A stretch of 64,000 nt of DNA from Anaerolineae bacterium (GCA_022071955.1 JAJVIM010000042.1:1-64000); one strand, 5' to 3'. Shown: positions 2,650-48,557, counted from the first letter of the stretch. Translations and numbers: made by a program. The notes: generated by a model not told the origin, from the sequence alone.

Positions 2650-2858
2650 ACGCACAAAAACGCAGTCTCACTAAAAACTGAATTGTTGGATACCCAAGAC
2701 AGCAGGTGCGGATAACGCTCAATTGGTAACACAGCCTGCCGAGGTAGATGCTTAGATAGTTAAGGTGCGTGCAGTTTATTGCATGCTGCCTGCTTAAAAA
2801 AGTCTCTGCCTTGGTGTGGCAGAGACTTTTTGATTTTTTGAGAAAGGAGGGAAAAAAC
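2650..2858 (+). promoter_or_regulatory. rplJ (L10) leader region
   Basis: About 200-nt structured untranslated region between rplA and rplJ, the position of the L10(L12)4 autoregulatory leader in bacteria; contains an internal terminator hairpin. Confidence 0.5.
2802..2840 (+). terminator. Attenuator/terminator hairpin within the L10 leader
   Basis: GTCTCTGCC-ttggtgt-GGCAGAGAC followed by TTTTTGATTTTTT. Confidence 0.6.
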
Positions 2859-12215: not shown

Positions 12216-12482
12216 TTATTCGGAGGATTTTGGGAGGCTGATCATTCTGTTTAATTGACGGATATCGTGTTGGTTGCATTGAGCAAGAAAATCATCAAAA
12301 ACGCCCATCATTTGAGCCATAGCGCGAAGCGCGCTTTCGTAACCTTCATTATATCCACAAGCGTAAATCTCATTTTTTTGGATATTGCTGAAGTTATATT
12401 GGGCTAAACGGAGAGCTTGCAAACCATCAACAATTGCAGAACGGTGAAGAAACGAGGGAATGCTTTGAAATTTTTGCGACAT
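12216..12482 (-). CDS. Hypothetical small protein (88 aa)
   Basis: Low-GC ORF with an AT-rich upstream region; no recognisable motifs. Confidence 0.4.
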   Translation of the reverse strand: MSQKFQSIPSFLHRSAIVDGLQALRLAQYNFSNIQKNEIYACGYNEGYESALRAMAQMMGVFDDFLAQCNQHDIRQLNRMISLPKSSE

Positions 12483-12683
12483 TGATCTTCCTTAGAATTA
12501 TATACAGAAAATTTGTTCTATTATAACACATGTTGTTCCGAACACATCCTTAAATTTTGTATATGGCGATTGTCCAAAATTTGCCCTATAAATTTTCTCT
12601 CCCCCCAACTGCTCCAATCGACCATAAAACTCCCAATAACCTAAAGCCGATTGCCCTGGCCGCGGTTGGCTGGTATGATACCG

Positions 12684-12725
12684 GCGGGAGTTTTCCTCCC
12701 GCATCCAACTTGCGGCTAATTTTTT
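12684..12725 (+). promoter_or_regulatory. Mutually exclusive hairpins (antiterminator GCGGGAG-tttt-CTCCCGC versus terminator CCGCA-tccaact-TGCGG plus T-run) in the leader of the antiporter gene
   Basis: The two stems share the CCGC segment; the second is followed by CTAATTTTTTAG. Confidence 0.4.
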
Positions 12726-12854
12726 AGGGAGTGCTACCGAAGCTGCGCCACAGCAACGGGGAATAAAAATTCTTATTTAATCGGTTGGGAGACCCTGTGC
12801 GAAGCGAAGGGCCTGCCCGGCCCGTATTGGGCGGGGTGACACGATTGAGCACCC

Positions 12855-12907
12855 CCTAACTCCTAATTCCTGACTCCTGAATCCTATTTTTAGAGGAGAA
12901 CCTGCTT
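12855..12907 (+). promoter_or_regulatory. CU-rich 5' leader (repeated CUCCU anti-SD-like pentamers) plus SD box CTATTTTTAGAGGAG before the TTG start
   Basis: CCCTAACTCCTAATTCCTGACTCCTGAATCCTATTTTTAGAGGAGAACCTGCTTTTG; a near-identical copy occurs inverted at 18811-18880. Confidence 0.45.
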
Positions 12908-14752
12908 TTGACCGAAGAACTCATTTTTGGGATCGCCATTATCATTGTATTAGGCATATCCGCCCAGTGGCTGGCCTGGCGGCTGCGCCTGCCCTCAATT
13001 TTGCTGCTGCTGCTGGCCGGCTTTCTGGCCGGGCCGGTGACCCACCTGCTCAACCCCGATGAACTGCTGGGCGATCTGCTCTTCCCGGTGGTGTCGGTCT
13101 CGGTGGCGATCATTTTGTTTGAGGGCGGACTCAGCCTCAAGCGCAGCGAAATTCAGACCACCGGCCACGTGGTGCGCAACCTGGTCACGGTGGGGGCGCT
13201 GGTCACATGGGCCATCGCTGCGACGGGGGCCTACACCATTTTGGGGCTGGCCCTGCCGCTGGCCCTGTTGTTTGGAGCAATTTTAGTGGTGACTGGCCCC
13301 ACGGTGATCATCCCGCTGCTGCGCCACGTGCGGGCGGTGGGGTCGGTCAGTTCGCTGGCCAAGTGGGAGGGCATTGTCAACGACCCCATCGGCGCAATTT
13401 TGGCGGTGCTGGTATTTGAAGGCATCGTGGCCGCCGAATTTCAGCAGGCCACAACAACCATCATTTTTAGCCTGTTGGTAGCGTTGCTCATTGGCGCGGC
13501 GTTGGGGGCTATTGGGGCGTACACCCTGGCTTTTTTACTGCGTCGCTACTGGATTCCCGATTACCTGCAAAGTGTGGTTACGTTGATGGTGGTGGTGGCC
13601 GCATTTGCCATTTCCAACATCGTGCAAAAGGAGTCCGGCCTGCTGACAGTCACGCTGATGGGCATTATTCTAACCAATCAGCGCGGCGTCAACATCAAAC
13701 CTATCATCGAATTTAAAGAGAATCTGGGCGTGCTGCTGCTGTCATCGTTATTTATTATTTTGGCGGCGCGGCTGCGGCTGGAAGATTTGGCCCACCTTGG
13801 GCTGCCGAGCCTGCTCTTTTTGGCCGTGTTGATTTTTGTGGCCCGGCCGGCGGCGGTGTTTGTTTCAACCATTGGCTCCGGTTTAAAGTGGCAGGATAAG
13901 GTTTTTCTCACCTGGATGGCGCCGCGCGGAATTGTGGCCGCCGCGGTGACCTCGGTGTTTGCGCTGGAACTGACCGAAGGGGCTGGTTATCACGACGCCG
14001 AACTGATGGTACCGCAGATGTTTGCCATCATTGTTGGCACGGTGGCCGTTTACGGCTTGAGCGCTGCCCCGCTGGGCCGCTGGCTGGGCATCGCCAAACC
14101 CAACCCGCAGGGCGCGCTGATTGTGGGCGCGCATTCGTGGGCGCGCACCATTGGCAGCATGCTCCAGGCCGAGGGAATTAAAGTGCTGCTGGTAGATACC
14201 AACCGCAGCAATCTGTCTGCTGCCCGGTTGGCCGGGCTGCCAACGCTCTATGCCAGCGTGCTGTCGGAGTATATTCACCACGAGGTTGAGTTGGGCGCTT
14301 TTGGCCGGCTGCTGGCGCTCACCCACAATGATGAAGTCAACTCGCTGTCAACCCTCCATTTTGCCGAAGTTTTTGGCCGGGCGGGCGTGTACCAGTTGTC
14401 GCCCAAAAAAACCGAAGATGGCCGCGCCGAAAGTATCTCGCTGCCGCTGCGGGGGCGGTTGTTGTTTAGCAAAGACCTGTCTTACAATGAGTTCAACCAT
14501 CGCATAGAAACCGGCTCAATGATCAAGCGCACGCCCATTACCGGCCAGTTTGCCCTGGCCGAATTCTACGATTATTACGGCGCGTCGGCCCGGCCTTTGT
14601 TTTTAATTGATACGTTGGGCAGGCTGCGGGTGTTTACCGCCGATGATCAGCCGCTTGCGCCCGAACCGGGCGATATTTTGATCAGCCTGGTTGAACCGGT
14701 TGAAACGATGGTCGAGACGGTGGCTGCGCAGGCTGATCCGGCGGCCGGATAG
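12908..14752 (+). CDS. Na+(K+)/H+ antiporter, CPA1/NhaP type, with a C-terminal regulatory domain
   Basis: 12-13 TM helices, conserved CPA motifs, cytoplasmic C-terminal domain; TTG start. Confidence 0.85.
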   Translation: MTEELIFGIAIIIVLGISAQWLAWRLRLPSILLLLLAGFLAGPVTHLLNPDELLGDLLFPVVSVSVAIILFEGGLSLKRSEIQTTGHVVRNLVTVGALVTWAIAATGAYTILGLALPLALLFGAILVVTGPTVIIPLLRHVRAVGSVSSLAKWEGIVNDPIGAILAVLVFEGIVAAEFQQATTTIIFSLLVALLIGAALGAIGAYTLAFLLRRYWIPDYLQSVVTLMVVVAAFAISNIVQKESGLLTVTLMGIILTNQRGVNIKPIIEFKENLGVLLLSSLFIILAARLRLEDLAHLGLPSLLFLAVLIFVARPAAVFVSTIGSGLKWQDKVFLTWMAPRGIVAAAVTSVFALELTEGAGYHDAELMVPQMFAIIVGTVAVYGLSAAPLGRWLGIAKPNPQGALIVGAHSWARTIGSMLQAEGIKVLLVDTNRSNLSAARLAGLPTLYASVLSEYIHHEVELGAFGRLLALTHNDEVNSLSTLHFAEVFGRAGVYQLSPKKTEDGRAESISLPLRGRLLFSKDLSYNEFNHRIETGSMIKRTPITGQFALAEFYDYYGASARPLFLIDTLGRLRVFTADDQPLAPEPGDILISLVEPVETMVETVAAQADPAAG

Positions 14753-14763
14753 TTGATGGTACT

Positions 14764-16632
14764 ATGGCCGAAGAATTTTCATTTTTATCGTTATTGCTCA
14801 TTACCGCGCTGGCGGCGTTTGTGCCGCTGCTGGCAACGCGGTTTAGCCAGTTCCGGGTGCCGATTGTCGTCGGTGAGATTTTGGCCGGGATGATTGTGGG
14901 CAAAAGCGGCTTCAACTGGATTGAAGCCAGCCCGGCGCTGGACTTTCTGACCATCTTTGGCTTCACCTACCTCATGTTCATTTCCGGCCTGGAAGTGGAT
15001 TTTACCACGCTGGCGGCCAACAAATCGTCAAAAAAATGGCTCGATAACCCCATTTGGCTGGGGGTGGTCGTATTTGCCATTACCGTGGGCGTGGCCTTTT
15101 TTGCCGCCGAAGGGCTATATGCCCTTGGCTTTGTATCCGAGCCGTTTATCATTGCCCTCATCCTCAGCACCACCTCGCTGGGAATTGTGGTGCCGGTGCT
15201 CAAAGAGCGCGGGCTAATGCCAACCCGCTTTGGCCAAACGCTGCTGATGTCGGCGTTGGTGGCCGATTTTGGCACGCTGGTGCTCATCACCATCGATGTG
15301 GCTATTTTGAGCCGCGGCCTCACCTTTGAGGTGCTGCTGGTGCTGTTGCTGCTGCTGGCTTTTGCGGTGGTGGTGCAGGTGGGCAAATGGGCGGCGCGCA
15401 TTCCGGGGCTGCCCCGCCTGTTCGAAGAACTGTCGCACGCTACGGCCCAAATTAAAGTGCGCGGCGCGGTGGCGCTGATGGTGGCGTTTATTGTGCTGTC
15501 CCAATGGCTGGGCAGCGAGATCATTTTGGGCGCGTTTCTGGCCGGGGCGGTGATTTCGCTGCTGGCCGGCCACGAAGGCTCAAACCTGCGCCTTAAAATG
15601 GACGCCATCGGCTTTGGCTTTTTTATTCCCATTTTCTTCATTATGGTTGGGGTGCAGTTTGATCTGCCGGCGCTGTTCCGTTCGCCGGAGGCGCTGTTGC
15701 TGGTGCCGGTGCTGCTGGTGATTGCCTATGCCGTTAAATTTGTGGCGGCGCTGCTTTATCGCCTCCAATTTTCGTGGCAGGAAACCTTTGCCGCCGGCGG
15801 CCTGCTGTCGGCCCGGTTGTCGCTCATTATCGCCGCGTCGGCCATTGCCCTCAATTTGGGCATCATCGATGAAGCCATCAACGCCGATTTTATTCTGGTG
15901 GCGATTGTCACCTGTACTATTTCACCGCTGATTTTTAACCGGGTTTACCCCGCCGCCCAAAAAATCAAGCGCGAGGGCGTGATCATTGTCGGGCTGGGCG
16001 AAACCTCGGCGATGCTGGCCCGGCGCTTGCAGCAAACCGGCGAGCGCGTGACCGTGCTGGGCCAAAGCCCGGAGCGGGCGCAGCGGCTGGCCCAGCAGCA
16101 AAACCTGACCGTGTTCGAAGGCGACCCGCGCCAGCCGGACTCGCTGCACCGGGCGGGCGCGGCGCAGGCCGCCACTCTGATTGCCGTGAGTACATACGAT
16201 GACGTGAATCTGGCCGCCTGCCGGCTGGCCGCCGAGGAATTTGGCGTGCCGCTGCTCATTGCCCAAAGCAGCGATCCGGCCGTGGCCGATTGTTTGACGG
16301 AGATGGGCGTGCGCGTGGTCCGGCCGCAGTTGGCTACCGTGCATGCGCTGGAAGGGGCGCTTCATTTTCCGGCGGCGTTTGATATGCTCACCAACCACGA
16401 AGATGGCGTGGAAGTGCGCGAGGTGCAGCTCAATCACCCGCAGTACAACGGCAAATTAATGCGCGAGATTCGGCTGCCGGGCAATGCGCTGGTGTTGGGC
16501 CTGCGTCGCAACGGCGAGGTGCTGGTGCCGCATGGCGACACCCAGCTTTATCTGGGTGATCTGCTGATGCTGGTGGGCCACCCGGAATCGTTGCAGCAGG
16601 CGATGGTGCAGATGAACTCAGTCCGGGCCTGA
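14764..16632 (+). CDS. Cation:proton antiporter, CPA2/Kef type, with RCK (TrkA-N/TrkA-C) domain
   Basis: TM domain then Rossmann VIIVGLGETSAMLARRL, TrkA-C at the C-terminus. Confidence 0.85.
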   Translation: MAEEFSFLSLLLITALAAFVPLLATRFSQFRVPIVVGEILAGMIVGKSGFNWIEASPALDFLTIFGFTYLMFISGLEVDFTTLAANKSSKKWLDNPIWLGVVVFAITVGVAFFAAEGLYALGFVSEPFIIALILSTTSLGIVVPVLKERGLMPTRFGQTLLMSALVADFGTLVLITIDVAILSRGLTFEVLLVLLLLLAFAVVVQVGKWAARIPGLPRLFEELSHATAQIKVRGAVALMVAFIVLSQWLGSEIILGAFLAGAVISLLAGHEGSNLRLKMDAIGFGFFIPIFFIMVGVQFDLPALFRSPEALLLVPVLLVIAYAVKFVAALLYRLQFSWQETFAAGGLLSARLSLIIAASAIALNLGIIDEAINADFILVAIVTCTISPLIFNRVYPAAQKIKREGVIIVGLGETSAMLARRLQQTGERVTVLGQSPERAQRLAQQQNLTVFEGDPRQPDSLHRAGAAQAATLIAVSTYDDVNLAACRLAAEEFGVPLLIAQSSDPAVADCLTEMGVRVVRPQLATVHALEGALHFPAAFDMLTNHEDGVEVREVQLNHPQYNGKLMREIRLPGNALVLGLRRNGEVLVPHGDTQLYLGDLLMLVGHPESLQQAMVQMNSVRA

Positions 16633-17355
16633 CTGTTCCAACTCGTCCAGATTACAGCCACGCCGCAGCATTTCCCCAAATTCGGCGGGCAGCTTTTTTT
16701 GCCGCAATTTTTCAACTACCCGTTCCACATCATAGTCCAGCCGAAAATGGCGCACTCTGACGCCAGATTTTTTGAGGGTGAGCAGCGCATACGCCGCGCG
16801 CGGGTCCCCGTCGTCCGGGCGGCCAACGCTGCCGGGGTTGATAAACCACACCCCGCCAACCTGCCGGGCAAACGGCCGGTGCGAATGACCGCACACAATA
16901 ATATCGACGCCGGCCAGTTGGGCCAGTTCTCGCAGCCGGGCATCCGGCGTATCCGGGGTCAGCCCCTCTTTGTTAGAGGCCGGGCTGCCGTGCGTGAGCA
17001 GCACCGAGGCGTGTTTGAAGCGGAGTACAATTTCGCGGGGCAGGCTTTGCAGATAGCGCCGGTTCTTTTTAGAAAGCGACCGGTACGCCCATTCAAACGC
17101 GCGATATTTCAGCGGATGGCGCGGCGCTTTCCACCCTTTTTGGCCAAAGCGCAGCGCCTTTTCATCGTAATTGCCAATAATGCTGACCGCGCTGGCCCGG
17201 CGCAGCAGGCGCACCACCCGGTTAGGGTAGGGATTGTAGCCCACAAAATCGCCCACATACCAGATGGCATCCGGCTGCTGTTGGGCGGCGTGAGCCAGTA
17301 CTGTTTCCAGCGCCGGCAGGTTGGCGTGGGCATCGCCCAAAAGCGCAATTTTCAC
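16618..17355 (-). CDS. Metallophosphoesterase (calcineurin-like)
   Basis: [22 protein letters not shown] motifs; GTG start overlaps the gatA stop (cagttGTGAaa), indicating translational coupling; the longer track ORF (start at 17502) overlaps gatA. Confidence 0.75.
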
Positions 17356-18809
17356 AACTGCGGTTTCTGTTTGTGCCAGTCGGTGGCCTGCTCGTACTGG
17401 TAGGCCACGCGCAAAATGGCGCTCTCGCCCAGGGCCGGGCCGATGATTTGCAACCCCACCGGCAGGTCGTTGGCAAAGCCGCCCGGCACCGAAACTCCAC
17501 ACGCGCCGGCCAGGTTGAGCGTCACCGTCAGCACGTCGCTCAGGTACATTTGCAGCGGGTCGTTGGCCCGTTCGCCAATTTTAAAGGGCGTGCCGGGCGA
17601 TACTCCGGCCACCATCACATCGACCTGCTCAAACGCCTGCTCAAAATCCCGCCGGAGCAGAGTGCGCACCTGTTGCGCCTTCAGATAGTAGGCGTCGTAA
17701 TAGCCGGCCGAAAGGGCATACGTGCCGAGCATAATCCGCCGTTTAACTTCCGGGCCAAAACCGGCCTCGCGGGTTTCGCGGAACATACTCCACATATCGT
17801 CGCCTTCGCGGCGCAGGCCAAAGCGCACGCCGTCGTAGCGGGACAGGTTGGCCGAGGCTTCGGCGGTGGAAATTAAATAATAAGCGGCGATGCCGTAGCG
17901 CGTGTGCGGCAGCGAGACCTCAACGATTTCCGCGCCCAAAGTGGCCAGCCGGTCAATGGCGGTGCGGACGGCGCTTTCAACCCCCGGCTCCATGCCTTCA
18001 ACAAAATATTCTTTGGGCACGCCGATGCGGGTGCCGCGCAGGTCGTCCCCTTTTTTGATGTCGGCGGCGTAGTTGGGTACCGGCGCGTTGAGCGTGGTCG
18101 CGTCGAGCGGGTCCGGCCCGGCGATAGCGCCCAGCAGCAGGGCCACGTCTTCCACATCTTTGCCAAACGGGCCAATCTGGTCCAGCGACGAGCCGTGAGC
18201 GATGGCCCCGTAGCGGCTGACCCGGCCGTAGGTCGGTTTGAGGCCAACCACGCTGCAAAACGAGGCCGGCTGGCGAATGCTGCCGCCGGTATCGGTGCCC
18301 AGCGCGCCCAGCGCCTCATCGGCGGCAATGGCCGCAGCGCTGCCGCCGCTGCTGCCGCCCGGCACGCGGCTGGTGTCCCACGGGTTGTGGGTGATTTTGT
18401 AGGCCGAATATTCAGTGGAGCTGCCCATTGTAAATTCATCGGTGTTGGTTTTGCCCACAAACACCGCCCCGGCCTCGCGCAGTTTGCGCACGGTGGTGGC
18501 GTCAAAAGGCGGCGTAAAGCCTTCCAGAATCTTCGATCCAGCGGTGGTCGGCACGCCCTGGGTGATGATGGCGTCTTTAATGGCCAGCGGGATGCCCAAC
18601 AGCGGGTTGTCTTCGCCGGTGGCGCGACGCTCGTCGGCCAGTTGGGCCATGCGCAGGGCCAACTCCGGCTGCAGGCTGATGTACGCGCCCACCCGGCTTT
18701 CCACGGCGTCGATGCGCTCCAGCACGCTTTCGGTCAGTTCCACGGCGGTAATCTCGCCGTGGCGGAGTTTGGCTTGCGCCTCGTGAATGGTCAGTTGGTA
18801 GAGTTTCAA
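17352..18809 (-). CDS. gatA: Glutamyl-tRNA(Gln) amidotransferase subunit A
   Basis: Amidase signature [12 protein letters not shown]..., full-length similarity to GatA; TTG start preceded by CAGAGGAG. Confidence 0.9.
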
Positions 18810-18810
18810 G

Positions 18811-18880
18811 TAATACTCCTCTGAAAATAGGAATCAGGAGTCAGGAGTCAGGAATTAGGGAAATACTCCTCTGAAAATAG
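18811..18880 (-). promoter_or_regulatory. gatA 5' leader: duplicated SD box (CTATTTTCAGAGGAGTATT x2) flanking a CU-rich block CCCTAATTCCTGACTCCTGACTCCTGATTC
   Basis: Inverted paralogue of the 12855-12907 leader. Confidence 0.45.
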
Positions 18881-18890
18881 AGTTGGTTGG

Positions 18891-19050
18891 CCCTCACCCC
18901 CCTGCCCCCTCTACCCTGCGGGCACTTCGTCCCTGCTGGACGAGGGGGGAAATCTTTTTAGGTGTGTGTTGGGGCGGCAAAGCCGCCCCAACACACACCG
19001 TTAAACTTACTCCCCCTCCCCGTTAACGGGGAGGGGGCAGGGGGGTGGGG
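18891..19050. repeat. Composite GC-rich intergenic element, copy A: C-tract arm, 18-bp perfect-stem hairpin, C5TC4/G4AG5 hairpin, four-G-tract G-quadruplex motif
   Basis: GGTGTGTGTTGGGGCGGC-AAA-GCCGCCCCAACACACACC (18961-18999); CCCCCTCCCC-gttaac-GGGGAGGGGG (19012-19037); GGGG-A-GGGGG-CA-GGGGGG-T-GGGG (19028-19050); same architecture at 26123-26267. Confidence 0.5.
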
Positions 19051-19061
19051 TAACGTAACAA

Positions 19062-19352
19062 TCAATCCAACACCGCTTTTACCCGAAAGCTGCGGTCAGC
19101 GGCGTCCGGGGCGTTGGCCAGCGCGTCTTCGTTATCCAGCGACAGCCGCACTTCATCGGCGCGCATCACGTTAAACAGGGGGATGGCGCTGGTGGTGGGC
19201 GGAATATCGCTGGTGTCGAGTTGCTGCAACATTTCGGCGTATTCCAGCACGCTGGAAAGTTGCTCCTGAAACATCAGTTTTTCTTCGTCAGACAGGGTCA
19301 GCTTGGCCAGTTCGGCGATGGTTTCAACTTCTTCACGGCTAATTTTGGCCAT
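19062..19352 (-). CDS. gatC: Asp/Glu-tRNA amidotransferase subunit C
   Basis: MAKISREEVETIAELAKLTLSDEEK... typical GatC; RBS GGAGGAA before the ATG at 19352. Confidence 0.85.
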   Translation of the reverse strand: MAKISREEVETIAELAKLTLSDEEKLMFQEQLSSVLEYAEMLQQLDTSDIPPTTSAIPLFNVMRADEVRLSLDNEDALANAPDAADRSFRVKAVLD

Positions 19353-19432
19353 GAGGGTTCCTCCAGGTTGGCGAAATTGCGCGGTCATGATAGGGTTGGG
19401 GGGGCAGATTGTCAAGCATAGGAGTTCACCCA

Positions 19433-19864
19433 ATGGGTATTTTTGACGAACTGAAAAAATTCCTCGCGCCGACGCCGCAGCCCGCGCCGCGCCCGCTGAA
19501 TTATCCCATCGATGGCTGGGCCATCCCCACGCTGGTAGTGAGCTATTTTCCGCTGCGCGGCCGCAACATCGACATGCGCGTTACCGGCGATGTGGGCGCG
19601 CCGCTGGAGTCGTTGCGGCGGCACACGGCGACCACCACCGAAACAGTGGCGCGGGCGCTGGAAACCGGCAGCATGTACCACGGCTACAAAGACCCCGCCG
19701 CCCAGCCCAGCCTGCGCTATGAAATTATCGATACCATTGAAGTTTTGGAGCCGCTGCCCACCTGGTCCAAGCCGGGCCACCGCGTACCGATGACCGATTA
19801 CAACGCCGTGATGCAGCGCATCGATATTGCCCGCTGGCTGGCGCGTGGCGTGAAAGAGGTGTAG
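19433..19864 (+). CDS. Hypothetical protein (144 aa)
   Basis: ATG with AGGAG RBS; no recognisable domain. Confidence 0.5.
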   Translation: MGIFDELKKFLAPTPQPAPRPLNYPIDGWAIPTLVVSYFPLRGRNIDMRVTGDVGAPLESLRRHTATTTETVARALETGSMYHGYKDPAAQPSLRYEIIDTIEVLEPLPTWSKPGHRVPMTDYNAVMQRIDIARWLARGVKEV

Positions 19865-19909
19865 CTGTGGGGCTACCACGGCGGGGTCATCGATATTTGG
19901 GAGAGCAAT

Positions 19910-20413
19910 ATGGCCGGCCCGTGGGGCGACATCAGCAACAGCGACCGCGACCCGCACGATTTGCCGGTACTGGACCGGACGTACACGGTGTACCACTACA
20001 ATTACGGGCGTGGCGCCAGCGAAGCCGTGGAAGATCACATGCACCAGATTGAGGCCGTGCTGCGCCACATCGACCCGCACTTGTTTTGGGATAAATTTGT
20101 GGGCCGGCCGGGCGAGGGGCGCTGCGGCTGGGCGCACTATCCGCCCAACGGTGTGCGTGATTACGATTGGGCCAACCCCACCAAAGTGTGGACGGACATT
20201 GAGGATTGGCGGCCGGACGGGACAGGCCAAAAAGTACTCATCAACAGTGATTGCTGGCAGCGTGACAGCCTGCGCTGGTTTATCTACTGGATGCAGAATG
20301 TGCCGGGCCGCAACCACGGCATCAGCTACCGTGGCCGGCCGCTGACCAACTGGTGGCGCTTTATTGGGGATTTTGATGGGGCAATAGAGAGTAGGATGGG
20401 TTTGGTGAGTTAG
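19910..20413 (+). CDS. Hypothetical Trp/aromatic-rich protein (167 aa)
   Basis: Same reading frame as the previous ORF, separated from it by a single TAG. Confidence 0.5.
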   Translation: MAGPWGDISNSDRDPHDLPVLDRTYTVYHYNYGRGASEAVEDHMHQIEAVLRHIDPHLFWDKFVGRPGEGRCGWAHYPPNGVRDYDWANPTKVWTDIEDWRPDGTGQKVLINSDCWQRDSLRWFIYWMQNVPGRNHGISYRGRPLTNWWRFIGDFDGAIESRMGLVS

Positions 20414-20449
20414 GTGAGTTCTGTGAGTAAAAACATTTAACTCACCAAC

Positions 20450-21781
20450 TCATGCTACTCTTTTAACCGTCAGTTTAAAACCATCCATTTTGGTTACCAC
20501 CACCTGCGCCCCCGCCGGAATAGGCTGGCCATCGGCGCTGGTGGCGCGCCAGCGTTCACCCCAAACAAACACACTGCCTTCCGGTTCGAGCGCCACTTTT
20601 ACCGTGCCCACCGCGCCAAGCATCGCCTCTTCGCCGGTGGTCGGCTGCCGTTTCATCGCCTGAAACACCTTGCGAAAGCCAAAGCCGACAATAATGGCCA
20701 TCCCCACCGGAATGCCAATGATCGACGGCAGGGGGATGTCGTAGGCAAACTCGCTGGTGTTAAACAGGATAATTGCCCCGAGAATGAAAGACACCACGCC
20801 GGTGGCGGTCAGCGCGCCAAATGTGGGGGTAAACAGCTCGGCCACCAGCAGGCCAATCGCCAAAATGATCAGCGCCAGCCCGGCATAATTAACCGGCAAC
20901 TGGCCGATGCCGTACAGCCCCACCAGCAGCAACATTGCGCCCACAATCCCGCTGATGTAACCGCCCGGATTAATGATTTCATACAAAATGGCCAGGCTGC
21001 CTATCGAAATCAGCAGCAGCGCGAGCGACGGGTTGGTAATGACCCCCAGCAAATCTTCCAGCATTGTCTCTTCTATGGTGCGGGTTGGGGCGTTGGCGGT
21101 GTGCAGCGTTACTTCCTCGCCGTTAACATCCACCACAAAACCGTCCATCTGCCGCAGCAAATCGTCCAGATCGTTGGCCACAAAATCGATGACGCCCAGT
21201 TCGAGCGCCTCCTGCGCAGTGGCGGCTTTGGCCTGGGTGATGGCCTGCTGCGCCCAATCGATGGCTTCTTTGCCGCGGCGATTGGCCAGGTTTTTGATGT
21301 CGGCTACCAGGATGTTCTCGATTTTGGCTCGCAGGGTTTCGTCAATATCGCCGCCGTTGCTGTCAATTGGGCTGGCCGCGCCGATGCTGGTATTGGGGGC
21401 CATTGCCGCCACATGAGCGGCCAAAGTGATGAACGTGCCGGCCGAGGCGGCAAAGCCGCCGCGCGGCCAAACGTAAACCACCACCGGCACATCGCTGGAG
21501 ATGATTTGCTGGATGATCTGGCGGGTCAAATCGACGCTGCCGCCGGGGGTGTTCAACCGGATGACCAGCGCTTCGGCGTTGGCGGTATCGGCGGCCTTAA
21601 TGGCGCGTTCAATAAAGCTGAGCATCACCGGCGTTACCGGGCCATCAACATCTGCCACCAGCACTTCCCGCTGGGGTTGGGCCAGCGCCGCCGGGGCCAG
21701 CAGGTGGGCTACCACCAGCACCAGATAGAACAGCCGCAGAAGTTTGTGTAATACCGGCATAAGTTCCTCGCTTTTAATCAA
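20450..21781 (-). CDS. NfeD-family membrane-bound serine protease (ClpP-class) with C-terminal OB-fold
   Basis: ClpP-like fold region (RLNTPGGSVD...FAASAGTFITLAA), multi-TM middle, NfeD short-form OB domain at the C-terminus. Confidence 0.8.
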   Translation of the reverse strand: MIKSEELMPVLHKLLRLFYLVLVVAHLLAPAALAQPQREVLVADVDGPVTPVMLSFIERAIKAADTANAEALVIRLNTPGGSVDLTRQIIQQIISSDVPVVVYVWPRGGFAASAGTFITLAAHVAAMAPNTSIGAASPIDSNGGDIDETLRAKIENILVADIKNLANRRGKEAIDWAQQAITQAKAATAQEALELGVIDFVANDLDDLLRQMDGFVVDVNGEEVTLHTANAPTRTIEETMLEDLLGVITNPSLALLLISIGSLAILYEIINPGGYISGIVGAMLLLVGLYGIGQLPVNYAGLALIILAIGLLVAELFTPTFGALTATGVVSFILGAIILFNTSEFAYDIPLPSIIGIPVGMAIIVGFGFRKVFQAMKRQPTTGEEAMLGAVGTVKVALEPEGSVFVWGERWRATSADGQPIPAGAQVVVTKMDGFKLTVKRVA

Positions 21782-21801
21782 TCGTGTATTGATATTATAG
21801 C

Positions 21802-23187
21802 TTGGCCGGCAGGCCGCGCCAAGCCGGGGTAAGGTTGAGGTTGGCTGTATTTGTGCTACAATGCGGTGCGGTCAGCTCACGTAAGGAGACTCCCATCGAC
21901 CTAACACAGACTCATGGCCAAAAGCGCAGCCTGCCTTTTATTTTGGCGGTGGCCCTGTTTGGCCTGGCGCTGGGCTTTAACGCCAGCACCCTTGACCCCT
22001 TTATTTACACCGAAAAAGTGCGCCTGCTGGCCCCGCCGGAATTAAAAAATACCGCGCTCGGCGGCATTACCATTTTGGCTTTGCTGATGGCGCTGCTGGT
22101 GCAGCCGCTGGTGGGCCAATGGAGCGACCGCACTCGCGGGCGGTGGGGCAAACGCGCCCCGTTCCTGATTGTTGGCTCGGTGGGGATGAGCCTGGCCCTG
22201 GCGGTACTGGTGGGGGCTAACAGTTTGGTTATTTTGCTGGTGGGCGCGCTGCTGGTGTCAATGTTTTCCAACACCACCCAGGCGGCCTGGCAGGCGCTCA
22301 TCCCCGATTATATTCGCGTGGCCCAGCACGGCACATCGGCGGGGGCCAAAACGGTGCTGGAGCTGGTGGGCGTGGTTAGCGGCATTGGCGTGGTGGGCTA
22401 TTTTTTGTCGCGGGGAAATGTGTGGGCCGCGCCGGCGGTTACCGCCGGACTGTTTTTGGTAATCCTGCTGGTAACGCTGGGACTGGTGCTGAAAACACCG
22501 GCCATCGACAGCGAGCCGGCGCCCCGCCAAACGGCCAGTTTTGCGGCGACGTTTGCCGTCAATTTAAAAAATGCGCCGCCGGCGTTTTTGTGGTGGATGC
22601 TCAACCGGATTTTATTTTGGGCGGCGGCTATTTCTGTCCGTACCTTTTTGCTCAATTATCTGGAAGATGTGCTGGGCCTCACCCCGGCCGAGGCGCAATC
22701 GCAAAGCAGCCGGATTTTGATTTTGCTGGGGCTGGGCGTGTTTGTGCTGGCGCTGCCGGCCGGCGCGGTGGCCGACCGGATTGGACGGCGACCAATTTTA
22801 ATTTTGGCCGGCCTGATGGCCGCCGGCGGTGCGACGTTGCTGGTGGTTTCCCGCGATCTGTCTGTTTTATACGTGGCCGGCGGGCTGATTGCCGGTGCGG
22901 CCGGTATATTTGCCAGCGCCAGTTGGGCGCTGGCCATCAACCTGGCTCCGCACCACGAAGGCGCGCTGTATTTGGCGCTGGCCAACGCGGCCACGGTGAC
23001 AGGCAGTATTGTTGGCCGGGTGGGCGGCGCGCTGATCGATGGACTCAACCAGTGGCTCGGCACGGCGACGACCGGCTATCTGGTGGATTACAGCATCGCC
23101 GCGCTGTTTTTTTTGGCCAGCAGCCTGGTAGCTTTCAAAATCCCGGAGACAATCCGGCGCCGCGGCGATACCGCCGGGCCGGATTGA
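21802..23187 (+). CDS. MFS transporter (start codon uncertain)
   Basis: 12 predicted TM helices, MFS loop motif GQWSDRTRGRWGKRAP; AAGGAG at 21883; a possible sigma70-like promoter TTGAGG-16-TACAAT (21835-21862) lies inside the maximal ORF, suggesting a later start. Confidence 0.75.
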   Translation: MAGRPRQAGVRLRLAVFVLQCGAVSSRKETPIDLTQTHGQKRSLPFILAVALFGLALGFNASTLDPFIYTEKVRLLAPPELKNTALGGITILALLMALLVQPLVGQWSDRTRGRWGKRAPFLIVGSVGMSLALAVLVGANSLVILLVGALLVSMFSNTTQAAWQALIPDYIRVAQHGTSAGAKTVLELVGVVSGIGVVGYFLSRGNVWAAPAVTAGLFLVILLVTLGLVLKTPAIDSEPAPRQTASFAATFAVNLKNAPPAFLWWMLNRILFWAAAISVRTFLLNYLEDVLGLTPAEAQSQSSRILILLGLGVFVLALPAGAVADRIGRRPILILAGLMAAGGATLLVVSRDLSVLYVAGGLIAGAAGIFASASWALAINLAPHHEGALYLALANAATVTGSIVGRVGGALIDGLNQWLGTATTGYLVDYSIAALFFLASSLVAFKIPETIRRRGDTAGPD

Positions 23188-23230
23188 CATTCTGTTTAGG
23201 GTGCGTAAAAATATAAGTTCCCGCGCCCCG

Positions 23231-23340
23231 GAATGTCACTCTGAGCCGAAGGCGAAGAGTCCCCAGGTTATCGGCTTAAACGGGCCACGGTCAGAGAGAT
23301 TCTTACCCAAGGGCACAGGTCGCTTCGCTCAGAATGACAT
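23231..23340. repeat. Long imperfect inverted repeat between convergent genes (AATGTCACTCTGAGCCGAAGGCGAAG ... CTTCGCTCAGAATGACAT)
   Basis: About 22-bp arms with about 52-bp spacer; candidate bidirectional terminator or MITE-like element. Confidence 0.45.
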
Positions 23341-23366
23341 AACGGAAGTTATTCTTTTACGAACTC

Positions 23367-25076
23367 TTAGCGCCGGTCCTGGCCGTAGTCGGGCACGTAT
23401 TCGGCCCGCTTGATTTTGTTGGTGGGAGTTTTGACAAAAGGCGCGCGCTGTTCGATCACCTTTTGGATTTGTGAAAAAGTGGGCAGTATTTTGTTCACCT
23501 GCCGGCGCACGTCTTCCAAAATTTGCTCGATGTCCTGGGCAATGGTCTCTTCTGATTTGTTCTTTTCGATGCTTTGAATGTAGCTGTAATCGGGGTAAAT
23601 CCGGGCCGTCAACTGGCCTTCCAGTTGTAAAACCAGCGCCTCGTCTACAAACGGCGAAGATTTGAGTTTGTCCTCAATAATTTCGGGGTAAATGTTTTCG
23701 CCGGATGGCCCAATGATGACGTTTTTGGAACGCCCTTTGATGTACAGGTAGCCGTCCGCGTCAATGTAGCCGCGGTCGCCGGTAATCAGCCAGCCATCGG
23801 CGGTGAACACCCGGCGGGTTTCGCTTTCGTTTTTGTAGTAGCCCTGCATCACGTTGGGGCCTTTTACCAAAATTTCACCGATGCCGGTTTCCGGGTTGGG
23901 GTCAATAATTTTTATCTGCACATCCTGAATCGGATAGCCAGTGGATCCCAGCCGGGTGGCGTGGATGGGCGAGCCGGTTACCAGCGGCGCGCATTCGCTC
24001 AGGCCGTACCCAATGGCGTAGGGGATGCCGGCTTCGCGCAGAAACAGTTCGGCTTCAGAGGCCAAACTGGCCCCGCCAATCAGTATCCCCTGCATTTTGC
24101 CCCCAAATACGGCTTTTACCTTGCGGCCAATGAGCCGATACACCAGTTTTCTGGTCAGCGGCAGCTTCACCAGTTGGCGCAGCGCCGGATTGCCGGCAAT
24201 GGCCGGCACCACCTGCTTTTGATAAATCTTTTCAAAGATCAGCGGGACGGCGGCCATAAACGTTGGTTTTACCTGCTGCATGGCGTTGAGCAGCACCTTT
24301 GGCGACGGTTTTTTGTCCATGTAGTACACCGACGCGCCGCAGTACAGCGGCGACAGCAGGGTAATGGTTGAGCCAAAGGCGTGGGCCATCGGCAAAATAG
24401 CCAGCAGCACGCTTTCCGGGGTGATCACTTTCACCAGCTCCGGCCCGCCGATCAGGTTGCTTACCAGATTTTTGTGGGTGAGCATTACCCCTTTGGAATG
24501 GCCGGTGGTGCCGGAAGTGTATAAAATCTGGGCCAGATCGTCTTCCCTGATTTCAATGACCGCCAGTTCCGGGCTGGATTTTTCGCGGACCGGCCGGATT
24601 TTTTCCGGCAGGTGGTGAAGCGGGTTCCACGGATTGTCGCTGGCCGGCGGCTCGCCGAGCGGGGCCAGGCAGGTCAGATCAACAATAATGTTGATTTTTT
24701 CCAGCGAGGGCAGATTGAGGCTGTTGTACAGCGCCTCGTCAATGATAATGGCTTTGGCTTCGGAGTGGTTAATAATGTAATCGATGTCCGGTTCGGGAAA
24801 TTCCGGCATCACCGGCACCACCACCGCGCCCATGGTCATCACACTCAAAAACGCCACAGACCAGTTGGGCGAGTTGGCTCCCACCAGCACCACTTTATCG
24901 TGCGGATTAACTCCGTACCGGCGTAACTGCTGTTGCAGATTTTTTACCCGCTCGCCCAATTCACGGTAGGTAAAGGGCGACTGGCCGGTAAAGGCCAGCG
25001 CCGGCCGGTCGGCGTATTTTTGAACTGCGGCCTCAAAAAATGCATTGAGGGTGAGTTTGGACAGATTTAACGTCAT
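23367..25076 (-). CDS. Long-chain fatty acid-CoA ligase (AMP-binding family)
   Basis: YTSGTTGHSKGV AMP-binding motif, full-length family similarity. Confidence 0.85.
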   Translation of the reverse strand: MTLNLSKLTLNAFFEAAVQKYADRPALAFTGQSPFTYRELGERVKNLQQQLRRYGVNPHDKVVLVGANSPNWSVAFLSVMTMGAVVVPVMPEFPEPDIDYIINHSEAKAIIIDEALYNSLNLPSLEKINIIVDLTCLAPLGEPPASDNPWNPLHHLPEKIRPVREKSSPELAVIEIREDDLAQILYTSGTTGHSKGVMLTHKNLVSNLIGGPELVKVITPESVLLAILPMAHAFGSTITLLSPLYCGASVYYMDKKPSPKVLLNAMQQVKPTFMAAVPLIFEKIYQKQVVPAIAGNPALRQLVKLPLTRKLVYRLIGRKVKAVFGGKMQGILIGGASLASEAELFLREAGIPYAIGYGLSECAPLVTGSPIHATRLGSTGYPIQDVQIKIIDPNPETGIGEILVKGPNVMQGYYKNESETRRVFTADGWLITGDRGYIDADGYLYIKGRSKNVIIGPSGENIYPEIIEDKLKSSPFVDEALVLQLEGQLTARIYPDYSYIQSIEKNKSEETIAQDIEQILEDVRRQVNKILPTFSQIQKVIEQRAPFVKTPTNKIKRAEYVPDYGQDRR

Positions 25077-26074
25077 TGTTGTCTTTCCTGATTGGGTTGA
25101 ATGATTTGACCGGCTTTGAGCTGCTGAACCAGCCGGGCGTTTTCAATGGCGACGGCGGTTTGGTTGGCCATGGCGGTCATTATTTTAATATCGCGTTGGG
25201 TAAAATTCGGCCCATCCAGATTGTTGGCGGCAGTTAATGTGCCAAGAATTGTACCCCGAAAGATAATAGGCACAACCAGCACCGCGCCGGCCTGGTTGTA
25301 CTGCCGGTACTGCTGTACCTCCGGGCTTTCGCGCAGGTCAGGCTGCTCCTTGGGCGAGAGCGCCGGCATTTTCTCGCGAATGACCCAACCGCTCAAACCG
25401 GCCATCATTTGGGCAAACGATATGACCGGTTTGTACTGGTTTGATTCAACATTGGTGACAATATTGGTTATATTTTGCCGGGCCAAATCCACCAGAATCA
25501 GCGCGGCCCGGTGCGCGGGCAGCGTTTGGCTAATGCTGTTTACGGCGTCCTGCAACAGGTCGGCCAGGCTGGTGATGGTAGTTAGCGACAGGCTGAAGCG
25601 GTACAGCGCCTCGGTATCGGCCAGCATGGCGGCGCTTTGCTCAAACAGGCGGCGATAGCGGGCCTCGCTGTATTTGAGCTTTTGCTCCATATTGTGTTTG
25701 TACAGGGCCATTTCGATGGTGCTGGGCAGGTCGCGGTTTTCAAAAGGCTTCAGCATGTAGCCGGCCGGTTCGGTTTGTTTGGCCCGCTCAAAGGTTTCGG
25801 CGTCGGTGTAGGCCGTCATAAAAACAATGGGCGTTACCTGCCGCTGGCGGATTTCCTGGGCCGCTTCAATGCCATCGAGCGAGCCTTGCAGTTTGATGTC
25901 CATCAGAATCAAATCCGGTTTAAGTTCCAGTGTCCGGGTAATGGCTTCTTCGCCACTGGCGACAATGGCCAGTACCGGGTAGCCGTGCTGCTCCAAACTC
26001 AGTTTAATGTTAGCAGCGACAATAAATTCATCTTCAACAATTAATATTCGGGCTTTGGGCATCCTGTTGCTCAT
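25073..26074 (-). CDS. Response regulator with REC and GAF domains (no DNA-binding output)
   Basis: ILIVEDEFIVAANIKL...DLILMDIKL receiver; C-terminal GAF-like region; ATGA overlap with the acyl-CoA ligase. Confidence 0.8.
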   Translation of the reverse strand: MSNRMPKARILIVEDEFIVAANIKLSLEQHGYPVLAIVASGEEAITRTLELKPDLILMDIKLQGSLDGIEAAQEIRQRQVTPIVFMTAYTDAETFERAKQTEPAGYMLKPFENRDLPSTIEMALYKHNMEQKLKYSEARYRRLFEQSAAMLADTEALYRFSLSLTTITSLADLLQDAVNSISQTLPAHRAALILVDLARQNITNIVTNVESNQYKPVISFAQMMAGLSGWVIREKMPALSPKEQPDLRESPEVQQYRQYNQAGAVLVVPIIFRGTILGTLTAANNLDGPNFTQRDIKIMTAMANQTAVAIENARLVQQLKAGQIIQPNQERQQ

Positions 26075-26122
26075 CAGTTTTGGCCAAAACTATACTGAAT
26101 CAATTTGAGAGTTACACTTTTG

Positions 26123-26267
26123 CCCTCATCCCCCCGGCCCCCTTCTCCCTCAGGGAGAAGGGGGAGAAAAGCTTTTTTGGTGCGGTTTTGAGCGGCGAAG
26201 CCGCTCAAAACCGCACCAAGTCAATCGTTCCCCCTCCCCAATTTGGGGAGGGGGTTGGGGGGAGGGG
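26123..26267. repeat. Composite GC-rich intergenic element, copy B
   Basis: GCCCTCATCCCCCCGGCCCCCTTCTCCCT arm; GGTGCGGTTTTGAGCGGC-GAA-GCCGCTCAAAACCGCACC (26179-26217); CCCCCTCCCC-aattt-GGGGAGGGGG (26230-26254); G4 motif 26245-26267. Confidence 0.5.
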
Positions 26268-26329
26268 ACCAGAAAGTGCAATTTTCATTCTGGCTTCAGT
26301 ATAAACGCCAGAAATTTCTATTGTAGTCT

Positions 26330-27460
26330 TCAACCGGGGTTGTCAGAAATAACCCGGTTCAGTGTTTCGATCAGTTTTTGCTGGGCCTGGGGCGATAATC
26401 CGCCGGCGGCCGCCGCCTGCAAAACGGGTTCCCAGTGCGGCACCGGCGTGTCCTGCCAGGCGATGCCGGCAGCTTCAAACACGGGCCGGGTGGCCGGCCA
26501 CGCTTCGGCCACCAGCGCCACCGGCTGGCTGCCATCGAGCGGCAGCGGCAGCGAAGTGGGCGGCGCGGACGGTGCGGGCGGTTGTTCGCCGGGGGGCAGC
26601 AGGCCAAACAGCCGCGCCGCGTTAAGGCCCATAATGTTGTCGGCAGCGTCGGGCGGCAACTTGAGCTGCTCAATTTCTTCGATAAACGGGCTAAAATCGG
26701 GGGCAGTCTGGCGGCGCGGGTAGAGTCGCAGCGGGTAGTCGGAGCCGTACAATATTTTGCCGGGGTCAACGCAGTGCAGGGCCGTGGCAAAAATTTTGGC
26801 GGTAGGGTAGAGCAGCGGCGAGGCGGCTGTATCGTACCACACGTTTTTGAGCACCCGGCCAACTTTGGGCATCAGCTCATAAAACAGCAACCCGCCGCCC
26901 CAGTGGGCCAAAATGAGCTTTAACTCCGGCAGGGTTTGCGCCAGCCGGTAGTAATGGCGCAGCGGCGTTGTGCTTTTGCCGGGGTAGTAGGGGCCAACCG
27001 CTTCGTTAACATGCAGATTGAGGGGAATATTGTGCCGGATGCAGGCCTCGGCCAGGCGCAGAAAATGGGTATCGCTCAGGCTGAAGCCCTGGGCGTACGG
27101 GTTCAACTCGCCCACCCCGGCAAAGCCGGCATCGAGGCAGCGCCGAAGTTCGGCCAGGGCCAGCGGACCGGCGTTAGGCTGAATCACTGCCAGCGGGATA
27201 ATCCGGTTGGGCCAGCGCCGGGCCAGTTCCATCGCCCGGTTGTTGCGCTCCACGCAGGCCTCGTGCCGCCGAAAATACTCGCCCACCAGCGCCACTCGGG
27301 CCAGCCCGGCCCGGTCCATAGCGGCGATCATCTGCTCGGCGCTGGCCCAGCCCTGCACCGATTTTGGCCCCAGCAGCAGCCCCCAATACGGTTCGCGCCC
27401 GGCCAGTTGGGCCGGGTCAATGGTGGGCGGCATATAATGAACGTGAGCATCAATGCGCAT
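26330..27460 (-). CDS. Amidohydrolase-family (TIM-barrel metal-dependent hydrolase) protein with C-terminal extension
   Basis: MRIDAHVHYMPP (HxH metal site) and conserved downstream His/Asp; start at 27460 or 27478. Confidence 0.75.
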   Translation of the reverse strand: MRIDAHVHYMPPTIDPAQLAGREPYWGLLLGPKSVQGWASAEQMIAAMDRAGLARVALVGEYFRRHEACVERNNRAMELARRWPNRIIPLAVIQPNAGPLALAELRRCLDAGFAGVGELNPYAQGFSLSDTHFLRLAEACIRHNIPLNLHVNEAVGPYYPGKSTTPLRHYYRLAQTLPELKLILAHWGGGLLFYELMPKVGRVLKNVWYDTAASPLLYPTAKIFATALHCVDPGKILYGSDYPLRLYPRRQTAPDFSPFIEEIEQLKLPPDAADNIMGLNAARLFGLLPPGEQPPAPSAPPTSLPLPLDGSQPVALVAEAWPATRPVFEAAGIAWQDTPVPHWEPVLQAAAAGGLSPQAQQKLIETLNRVISDNPG

Positions 27461-27519
27461 GGGCAGCTCTTTCTGCATAGCCGGATAATAGCACGGATAA
27501 GGCCAAAACGCTATCGGGA

Positions 27520-27548
27520 TTGCTTTCTGTCTGGCGTTTGGGTACAAT
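27520..27548 (+). promoter_or_regulatory. Candidate sigma70-type promoter for the STAND operon (TTGCTT-17-TACAAT)
   Basis: Hexamers and spacing read directly; 30 bp upstream of the ATG at 27579. Confidence 0.4.
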
Positions 27549-27578
27549 CTTAACCAACTTGCAAGAGGGTCCAGCGCG

Positions 27579-39120: not shown

Positions 39121-39220
39121 AGGAGTCCGGCAGAACCGGGGGTAGATACCAAAAATGCCTGCCTCTAAAGGGAGCTGCCTCCCACGCCCGGTCTGCGGTG
39201 TTATTTTCACAGGAGTAAAT

Positions 39221-46325: not shown

Positions 46326-46331
46326 GGGCAA

Positions 46332-46426
46332 GATGAAGGATGACCCCCCTTGCAGGGGGCAGGGGATGAAGGATGAGGGACAATCCGTTTATTGGCTGAT
46401 TCGTAATTCATCATTCGTAATTCATC
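46332..46426. repeat. Micro-repeats in the menA upstream region: 12-bp direct repeats GATGAAGGATGA flanking a 21-bp GC hairpin, then a 14-bp tandem ATTCGTAATTCATC x2
   Basis: Read directly. Confidence 0.5.
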
Positions 46427-46430
46427 ATTG

Positions 46431-48557
<2,127 letters not shown>

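Follow-up and report, generated by a model that had tools for sequence, protein, structure and literature searches.

Described heptamer repeats and comparison with the Anaerolineae locus

Direct repeats of the heptamer TAACTGA occur in marine Beggiatoaceae and in some cyanobacteria and Bacteroidetes (MacGregor, 2015, PMC4679880). Their arrays comprise two to six units, mostly "forward" and a few nucleotides upstream of the starts of unrelated genes, and the unit contains stop codons, with none in its reverse complement (PMC4679880). No stable RNA structure is predicted for these arrays, canonical ribosome-binding sites (RBSs) are rare beside them, and a translational role has been proposed (PMC4679880). 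Contiguous heptamer repeats are also located near promoters or start codons in Nostoc/Anabaena, among them a GAC(C/T)AAT array upstream of the Nostoc recO gene (bioRxiv 10.1101/2022.06.06.494920). Two further groups of dispersed elements are close enough to be compared: the putative mobile promoters, in which non-homologous genes share upstream regions of 50-100 nt with at least 80% identity (Matus-Garcia et al., 2012, PMC3488235), and the mosaic extragenic repeats known as BIME/REP and REPINs (PMC3116915).

The DNA analyzed here, hereafter the window, is a stretch of 64,000 nt from an Anaerolineae bacterium (GCA_022071955.1, JAJVIM010000042.1:1-64000), with a G+C content of 57.6% and closest relatives named Caldilineaceae or Anaerolineae. 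Our preferred reading, to which we assign a probability of about 0.6, is that the leaders of its nhaP and gatA genes carry a lineage-specific, recombining modular intergenic repeat, in which a heptamer array and an RBS cassette are placed before many unrelated genes. The cassette would consist of two to five tandem YCCTRAN units fused to a fixed box of 15-16 nt, CCTATTTTYAGAGGAG. Like the TAACTGA repeats, its 13 arrays are co-oriented, have two to five units and end, with the box, 4-9 nt from start codons. In contrast, the unit is YCCTRAN, the phylum is Chloroflexota, a canonical AGGAG Shine-Dalgarno (SD) sequence always follows the array, and the arrays belong to larger mosaics of other repeats.

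The cyanobacterial STRRs were reportedly treated by Mazel et al. in 1990, and Elhai et al. are said to have dealt with the small dispersed repeats of cyanobacteria in 2008. The arrays studied here share with the STRRs the dispersed intergenic location of tandem heptamers and the presence of several unit types per genome, and with cyanobacterial heptamers in general the other small repeats embedded in or beside the arrays. Moreover, a GACCAAT array at locus L010 (3293-3328) matches the unit of the recO array; it is the sole unit here that resembles those of Nostoc. STRRs, with the units STRR1-3, belong to (heterocystous) cyanobacteria; the host here is not a cyanobacterium, judging from the match in a Caldilineaceae genome and from GatA relatives that are Anaerolineae/Chloroflexota, and a CU-rich unit with an attached RBS box is not described for STRRs.

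As with mobile promoters, near-identical upstream sequence stands before unrelated genes both within and between genomes; the part conserved here is, however, the RBS-proximal leader, of 38-45 nt, and not demonstrably a promoter. The shared stretch has a core of 31-48 nt at 87-98% identity and reaches 91 nt (window versus L009) only with the inclusion of an adjoining repeat, module A. Intergenic mosaics composed of a few hairpins and spacer motifs in variable order, with rapid strain turnover, are a feature in common with BIME/REP and REPINs, from which the cassette differs in being strictly co-oriented, abutting the downstream start and containing tandem heptamers. REP elements have palindromic units in characteristic doublets and an associated RAYT transposase; in the loci studied here, palindromes were present in the mosaics, but neither REP doublets nor a RAYT gene were observed. 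No paper tying heptamer repeats to Chloroflexota was found in the literature searched. The phenomenon itself is known, albeit poorly understood; the present case differs from its precedents in phylum and unit, in having a fixed SD box joined to the array, and in that the units are chained.

Leader modules of nhaP and gatA

The initial annotation had described near-identical CU-rich elements in the leaders of nhaP and gatA, with the SD box duplicated at the gatA copy, and the sequence of both sites reads as it described. The element is a real recurrent module that supplies the SD and is also present before unrelated genes, whereas, of the two interpretations proposed for it, that of a translational switch was not supported and that of terminal inverted repeats was refuted (see below). 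The same module is found at 12854-12898 on the plus strand (nhaP) and at 18880-18816 on the minus strand (gatA), in both cases as four YCCTRAN units leading into CCTATTTTYAGAGGAG and ending 9 nt (nhaP) or 6 nt (gatA) before a TTG start. Over a 45-nt alignment, the two copies are 88.9% identical (E = 2.8e-8).

As read from the sequence, the array in the nhaP 5' leader (12854-12881, plus strand) consists of CCCTAAC (12854-12860), TCCTAAT (12861-12867), TCCTGAC (12868-12874) and TCCTGAA (12875-12881); with a TAA or TGA in every unit, it closes all three reading frames. A degenerate last unit, TCCTATT (12882-12888), overlaps the RBS box CTATTTTTAGAGGAG (12884-12898), whose GGAG (12895-12898) is the SD located 9 nt ahead of the TTG start at 12908. 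The gatA copy lies on the minus strand in the gatC-gatA spacer and begins with an upstream, orphan box CTATTTTCAGAGGAG (18866-18880) followed by TATT. After one further T comes the array CCCTAAT TCCTGAC TCCTGAC TCCTGAT (18833-18860), and a degenerate TCCTATT unit (within 18816-18832) again overlaps the functional box CTATTTTCAGAGGAG (18830-18816), which is followed by TATTAC and the TTG start at 18809, with the SD 6 nt before the start. The duplication of the box (18880-18866 and 18830-18816) is part of a 19-nt direct repeat, CTATTTTCAGAGGAGTATT, at 18880-18862 and 18830-18812. A box-only member without CU heptamers, TTATTTTCACAGGAG, is located at 39201-39215 (plus strand), 5 nt before an ATG at 39221, and the CACAGGAG variant of this box is also found at loci L004 and L008. 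The box pattern has four matches in the window against 0.06 expected, a number reached in none of 100 shuffles; the patterns TCCTGAYTCCTGA and TCCTNNNTCCTNNNTCCT each have six, against 0.82 and 0.08 expected, respectively.

The gene calls made initially for this region (antiporters, phosphoesterase and gatA) were upheld by Pfam domains and by a GatA homologue search. Na_H_Exchanger domains were assigned at 12908-14752 and 14764-16632, Metallophos at 16618-17355 and GatC at 19062-19352, and the GatA search returned one 100% identical match (P0001) together with many named GatA proteins. Another gene precedes gatA in its unit: gatC (19352-19062), located directly upstream on the same strand. The intercistronic spacer between them measures 252 nt, the module filling its last 65 nt. 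The remainder (18881-19061, minus strand) is made up of other repeat modules without counterpart in relatives, namely perfect palindromes and G/C-run motifs: a 39-nt palindrome at 18961-18999, a G/C-run segment and the palindrome CCCCCTCCCCGTTAACGGGGAGGGGG at 19012-19037.

Promoter-like sites are present upstream of both modules. The one upstream of nhaP, TTGCCC-17-(TG)TATGAT (12651-12679, plus strand), is conserved in the metagenome contig L007, and a near-consensus TTGACA-17-TATCAT precedes gatC. Judging from these consensus matches, both modules should be transcribed as mRNA, and the nhaP module would lie inside the 5' UTR, about 170-220 nt in. Between the promoter-like site and the array lies the strain-variable repeat module A (..GGGAGACCCT..hairpins..GGGTGACACGATTGAGCACCCC; 12735-12853, plus strand, left edge approximate).

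The nhaP leaders also contain conserved features composed of a hairpin and a T-run, at 12651-12725 in the window (GGCGGGAGTTTTCCTCCCGC..CTAATTTTTT) and at 2437-2510 in L007. The nhaP leaders of relatives (L013 9926-10000 and L014 14720-14800, both on minus strands) have GCCGCC..GGCGATTTTTTT directly before the SD. These features may represent an attenuator or a riboswitch-like element of the antiporter operon; Rfam gave no match for them.

A dispersed family of co-oriented cassettes

The motif was searched for in other leaders, and the same module was found before other, unrelated genes. One genome per bacterial and archaeal species was scanned with the 22-base pattern TCCTRANTCCTATTTTNAGAGGAG, which gave three matches, all in one uncultured Caldilineaceae metagenome-assembled genome (MAG). 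The three matches stop 5-9 nt short of the ATGs of three different genes, which encode a 140-aa protein, a signal-peptide protein and a glycosyltransferase-like protein. A slightly looser pattern gave seven further matches in a metagenome scan, all in one sample. A local inventory, allowing up to two mismatches in the box and covering the window, one Caldilineaceae MAG and one metagenome, yielded 19 non-redundant boxes in about 108 kb of the lineage, against none in 47 kb of loci from relatives.

All 19 boxes are co-oriented with the downstream gene. For 13 of them, the start of a long ORF follows after 4-9 nt, and the other six are internal, embedded in longer mosaics made up of hairpins, additional boxes and heptamer arrays of other kinds. 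These proportions are not an unbiased census since the loci were retrieved with box-containing patterns. The genes are unrelated: those served encode an antiporter, GatA, an MbtH-like protein, a tail-sheath-like N-terminus, a glycosyltransferase and a lipoprotein-like protein. Two to five CU-rich YCCTRAN units precede the box in 13 of the 19 cases. Across 13 copies the 38-nt core is 93% identical, and the similarity ends right after AGGAG. Within the units, position 5 is only G or A and position 7 is free, with CCTRA highly conserved. Every unit contains TGA or TAA and its reverse complement is stop-free; owing to the period of seven, three units close all three reading frames, which is the case in 12 of the 13 arrays.

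Could the arrays be independent products of local slippage, each derived from its own leader and similar by convergence? Heptamer arrays of many unit types are indeed common in these loci and in relative L013, as well as in viral contigs generally. However, the non-repetitive 15-nt box and the order of the unit variants are shared at 87-98% between unrelated genes and genomes, and the orthologous leaders of relatives contain no precursor, which makes such an origin very improbable. Bare (TCCTRAN)x3+ arrays were present in at least 120 viral contigs, and the control heptamers CTCTRAN and TCCTRTN in 115 and 41, respectively. In view of these controls, the viral matches show just that heptamer STRs are common, and no link to the cassette is drawn from them.

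A phage origin of the cassette was considered and rejected, the module together with its box having no match in viral contigs. One viral contig family has (TCCTGAT)n between conserved flanks, varying from about 4 to 10 copies, and represents a phage VNTR (loci L027, L032, L038, L044, L045, L048 and L050, and further L052, L054, L059, L060, L064 and L068), which is unrelated to the cassette of the window.

Mosaic organization of the intergenic regions

The six internal boxes are followed by shared modules instead of a start codon, and then by another heptamer array and box. Three such units are chained between a stop codon and the next ATG at L008, and two each at L009 and L004, while gatA has the minimal arrangement of box, array and box. 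At gatA, L008 and L009 the boxes flank the arrays as direct repeats. The box variants CACAGGAG and CAAGGGAG come after other heptamers (ATTCGCN) or G-rich palindromes. Heptamer unit types found in these intergenic regions comprise YCCTRAN, ATTCGCN, GACCAAT, AAGGATG and GATGAAT/TACGAAT.

Two larger modules recur next to the arrays. Module A, of the form GGGAGACCCT..GGGTGACAC..TTGAGCACMCCC, is found at the nhaP leader of the window and at L001, L004, L008 and L009, where in the latter four its copies precede a heptamer array. Module B is a perfect hairpin, GGAGTCCAAAAC-N4-GTTTTGGACTCC, followed by ACAATTTTTTAGAG..GGCAGGAAT, and occurs in L002, L004, L006 and L007. A role of module B as a mobile promoter was rejected, its TTGGAC-16-TAGAGT falling below the threshold of the promoter scan.

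Recent gain and turnover among relatives and strains

GatA of the relatives represented by L012, L013 and L014 is 85, 84 and 81% identical to that of the window, respectively. Their gatC-gatA spacers measure 11, 69 and 59 nt, versus 252 nt in the window; they have ordinary SDs and lack the module. The module is also absent from the nhaP leaders of L013 and L014, which are unrelated to it. These comparisons point to a recent gain of the module at both window sites, nhaP and gatA. A T-run with an AGGA-type SD after it was already present in the ancestral nhaP leader, and part of the similarity of the nhaP box could be ancestral.

The flanks of the arrays vary even between strains. The metagenome contig L007 belongs to the strain of Logan contig L011, which is 99.37% identical to the window over 5994 nt (window 12870-18863). 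In L007, the position immediately 5' of the nhaP array is occupied by module B instead of the module A of the window, with the sequence on either side of the swap 92-98.6% identical to the window. Such a swap between near-identical strains implies that array flanks are exchanged on the time-scale of strain divergence. Both ends of L011 itself fall within the repeat copies, its start in the gatA array and its end in the nhaP array, the behavior expected of a multi-copy repeat in short-read assembly.

The initial annotation had alternatively viewed the two copies as terminal inverted repeats of a mobilized segment of about 6 kb carrying both antiporters, the phosphoesterase and gatA. Two 45-nt copies are indeed in inverted orientation 6 kb apart, and in L012 the metallophosphoesterase and both antiporters are lacking between gatA and a small ORF, so that part of the 6-kb region is indel-variable. 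This is a three-gene indel (L012 11459-11923 versus window 12216-17352), after which gatA is directly followed by a homologue of the window's 88-aa ORF (42% identity), and its boundary is the 3' end of gatA and not the gatA leader, contrary to what the mobilized segment would predict. The order NfeD-x-gatC-gatA-metallophos-antiporter-antiporter-(small ORF)-Band_7-FtsX is identical in the window, L013 and L014, so synteny runs through both copies there, and the collinearity of L012 with the window spans 17362-29897, continuing for 12 kb beyond gatC. Moreover, gatA belongs with gatC, outside the supposed block; at least 17 further copies are found elsewhere, all single and gene-oriented; and the sole products of the block are GatA, Metallophos and two Na_H_Exchanger proteins, with no transposase among them. 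Inspection of both sites revealed no direct repeats outside the two copies that would represent a target-site duplication. A mobilized block is therefore extremely improbable and was refuted by the relatives, in which neither copy coincides with a synteny break, the test that the initial annotation had set; the copies look inverted because nhaP and gatA are divergently oriented.

Another question is whether the arrays serve a trans-acting regulon, in which UCCURAN repeats spaced by 7 nt would form a platform for an RNA-binding factor that co-regulates translation or premature termination. The factor may be S1, a cold-shock-type protein, a Csr-like protein or Rho acting on the C-rich, G-poor tract. 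The strict orientation, the start-proximal position and the high conservation of CCTRA within units with a free position 7 are consistent with it, and the same has been proposed for the Beggiatoaceae repeats (PMC4679880) and the Nostoc heptamers (bioRxiv 10.1101/2022.06.06.494920). Exact conservation of 38 nt before unrelated genes could likewise be due to selection for a trans-acting binder and not to recent copying. On the other hand, the arrays are short (14-35 nt), and the box also stands behind ATTCGCN heptamers or G-rich hairpins, so that there is no fixed link between box and heptamer type. We consider such a regulon unlikely; the recent gain at gatA and nhaP and the swaps of flanks fit repeat dynamics better than an old regulon.

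RNA folding and accessibility of the Shine-Dalgarno site

RNA thermometers such as ROSE and fourU are cis-regulators that sequester the SD. The cassette resembles them in having an upstream pyrimidine-rich stretch that can pair with the SD, but it has no stable conserved hairpin, covariation or Rfam match, and its masking is ordinary for the window. According to the initial annotation, the CUCCU pentamers could sequester the AGGAG and act as a translational switch. Such a switch would be a cis attenuator or thermosensor occluding the RBS until the weak helix is melted by temperature, a helicase or a factor. The complementarity of CUCCU and AGGAG was confirmed in every copy, whereas the predicted masking was weak, within the ordinary range and without covariation. 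A helix of CUCCU:AGGAG stacked on CUGAN:UYAG, with a 7-nt loop and a 5-nt bulge, can be drawn in every copy. Its pairability in 93% of cells across the 13 copies, against 49-65% in slid controls, is nevertheless uninformative on the helix either way since the paired columns do not vary, and compensatory changes were zero across the 13 copies.

The predicted cost of opening the SD averaged about 4.3 kcal/mol in CU-array leaders (range 1.8-6.3) and about 2.4 kcal/mol in box-only leaders (range 1.2-4.1), and was about 1-1.5 kcal/mol lower at 55 C, in line with a switch. However, leaders of the ancestral type in relatives, without the module, span the same range (0.4-5.8 kcal/mol). Among 31 gene starts of the window that were called heuristically (median 3.4, IQR 2.7-4.75 kcal/mol), nhaP (4.6 kcal/mol) ranks at about the 68th percentile and gatA (5.3 kcal/mol) at about the 87th, both in the upper half but not as outliers. 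With opening costs in the ordinary range, the arrays would add at most modest self-masking.

The minimum free energies of the leaders ranged from -5.9 to -20.7 kcal/mol. When the leaders were folded, as the initial annotation had suggested, none was more stable than its shuffles (z-scores of +0.71, -0.23, -0.16, +1.54 and -1.64); the weak -1.64 belongs to L003, whose fold does not use the CUCCU:AGGAG helix. An Rfam search of the whole window at the gathering threshold gave just the L10 leader, located elsewhere, and at E <= 1 both leaders returned sub-threshold hairpin noise and no family match. Furthermore, the genes served have no common functional theme. Overall, a cis switch appears improbable, and by these models a dedicated one seems unsupported by anything computed here.

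Proposed spread of the cassette and its implications

The preferred reading remains that of a portable repeat combined with an RBS. The cassette would sit within mRNAs, in 5' UTRs and intercistronic spacers, always toward the next gene, and the box of the last unit would be the SD site of the downstream gene and its working RBS. AGAGGAG would be able to pair over seven positions, one of them G-U, with the conserved 3' tail of the 16S rRNA, if the host has this tail. The nhaP and gatA copies would represent independent acquisitions, each replacing the ancestral SD region. Recombination between copies, or template switching, anchored in the homology of the box or the SD, probably accounts for the spread and reshuffling of the cassette; such anchoring is suggested by the box-bounded duplications, by the junction exactly after AGGAG and by the finding of no terminal inverted repeats, target-site duplication or transposase. 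Array length would be set by slippage, and the element would have no transposase-type ends, its exact ends being our estimate. The effect on expression is probably modest: a standardized strong SD with three-frame stop insulation, a G-poor, weakly structured platform in front of the SD, and partial masking of the SD by the leader itself, at about 2-6 kcal/mol.

A bolder version, which we regard as unlikely, combines two ideas, either or both of which might apply. The first is a self-propagating, "RBS-homing" miniature element that would copy itself to the SD-start junctions of new genes by annealing to the SDs of these genes; as its 3' end is the SD, it would always restore the translation of the gene on which it lands. 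The second is a lineage-wide post-transcriptional regulon of Chloroflexota, in which heptamer arrays would be operators in filamentous members of the phylum, in parallel to the proposal for Beggiatoaceae and cyanobacteria.

If the preferred reading of a portable repeat and RBS cassette is true, a Chloroflexota lineage rewrites the RBS regions of unrelated genes, including the essential gatA, with a standard cassette, at the pace at which strains diverge. Heptamer repeats next to start codons would then extend to a third or fourth phylum, and the fixed SD box traveling with the array would be a feature not described before. The cassette would be a counterpart in nature to the "three-frame stop + RBS" insulator of synthetic design, and would offer a concrete case in which to study whether repeats of this kind have a selfish, structural or regulatory character. 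There would also be practical consequences: cassettes break short-read assemblies exactly at gene starts, as in the case of L011, and can mislead the calling of start codons and operons in MAGs.

Other repeats and leaders in the window and related loci

Several further repeats were observed beside the cassette. A different heptamer leader of the same genome occupies the spacer of two co-directional genes at 46331-46431 (minus strand): it contains (GATGAAT TACGAAT)x2, CU-rich heptamers (TCCCTCA TCCTTCA ... TCATCCT TCATCTT) and a small palindrome, and abuts ATG/TTG without an obvious SD. A palindrome CCCCCTCCCC-N4-6-GGGGAGGGGG recurs at 19012-19037 and 26228-26253 of the window and at about 1578-1600 of L004, representing another dispersed intergenic module, beside perfect palindromes at 18961-18999, 26138-26164 and 26177-26219. 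Long concatenated (AAGGATG)n, (GACGAAT)n and (GACCAAT)n arrays lie upstream of the CU array of L010 (3212-3328). An inverted array at L008 795-870 (AGGAGTC AGGAGTT AGGAATC AGGAGTT GGGAGTT AGGG) is separated by a 6-nt loop from the forward CU array that it faces, and the two would give a long heptamer hairpin after a stop codon. An intergenic 9-mer array, (GGTGAGTTA)x3, stands beside its partial inverse at window 20400-20428.

Within coding sequences, a 42-nt tandem repeat in three copies is located in the 5' part of a gene (37654-37778), where it encodes an Ala/Pro/Glu-rich linker. Two large paralogous genes at 28372-35400 have common internal repeats, in blocks 76-97% identical, which are probably of the WD40 type by analogy with the TIR/NB-ARC/WD40 protein called in L012. 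The ribosomal protein L10 leader (Rfam RF00557, 74.5 bits) was located at 2675-2841 (plus strand) in the nusG-rplKAJL region, as expected.
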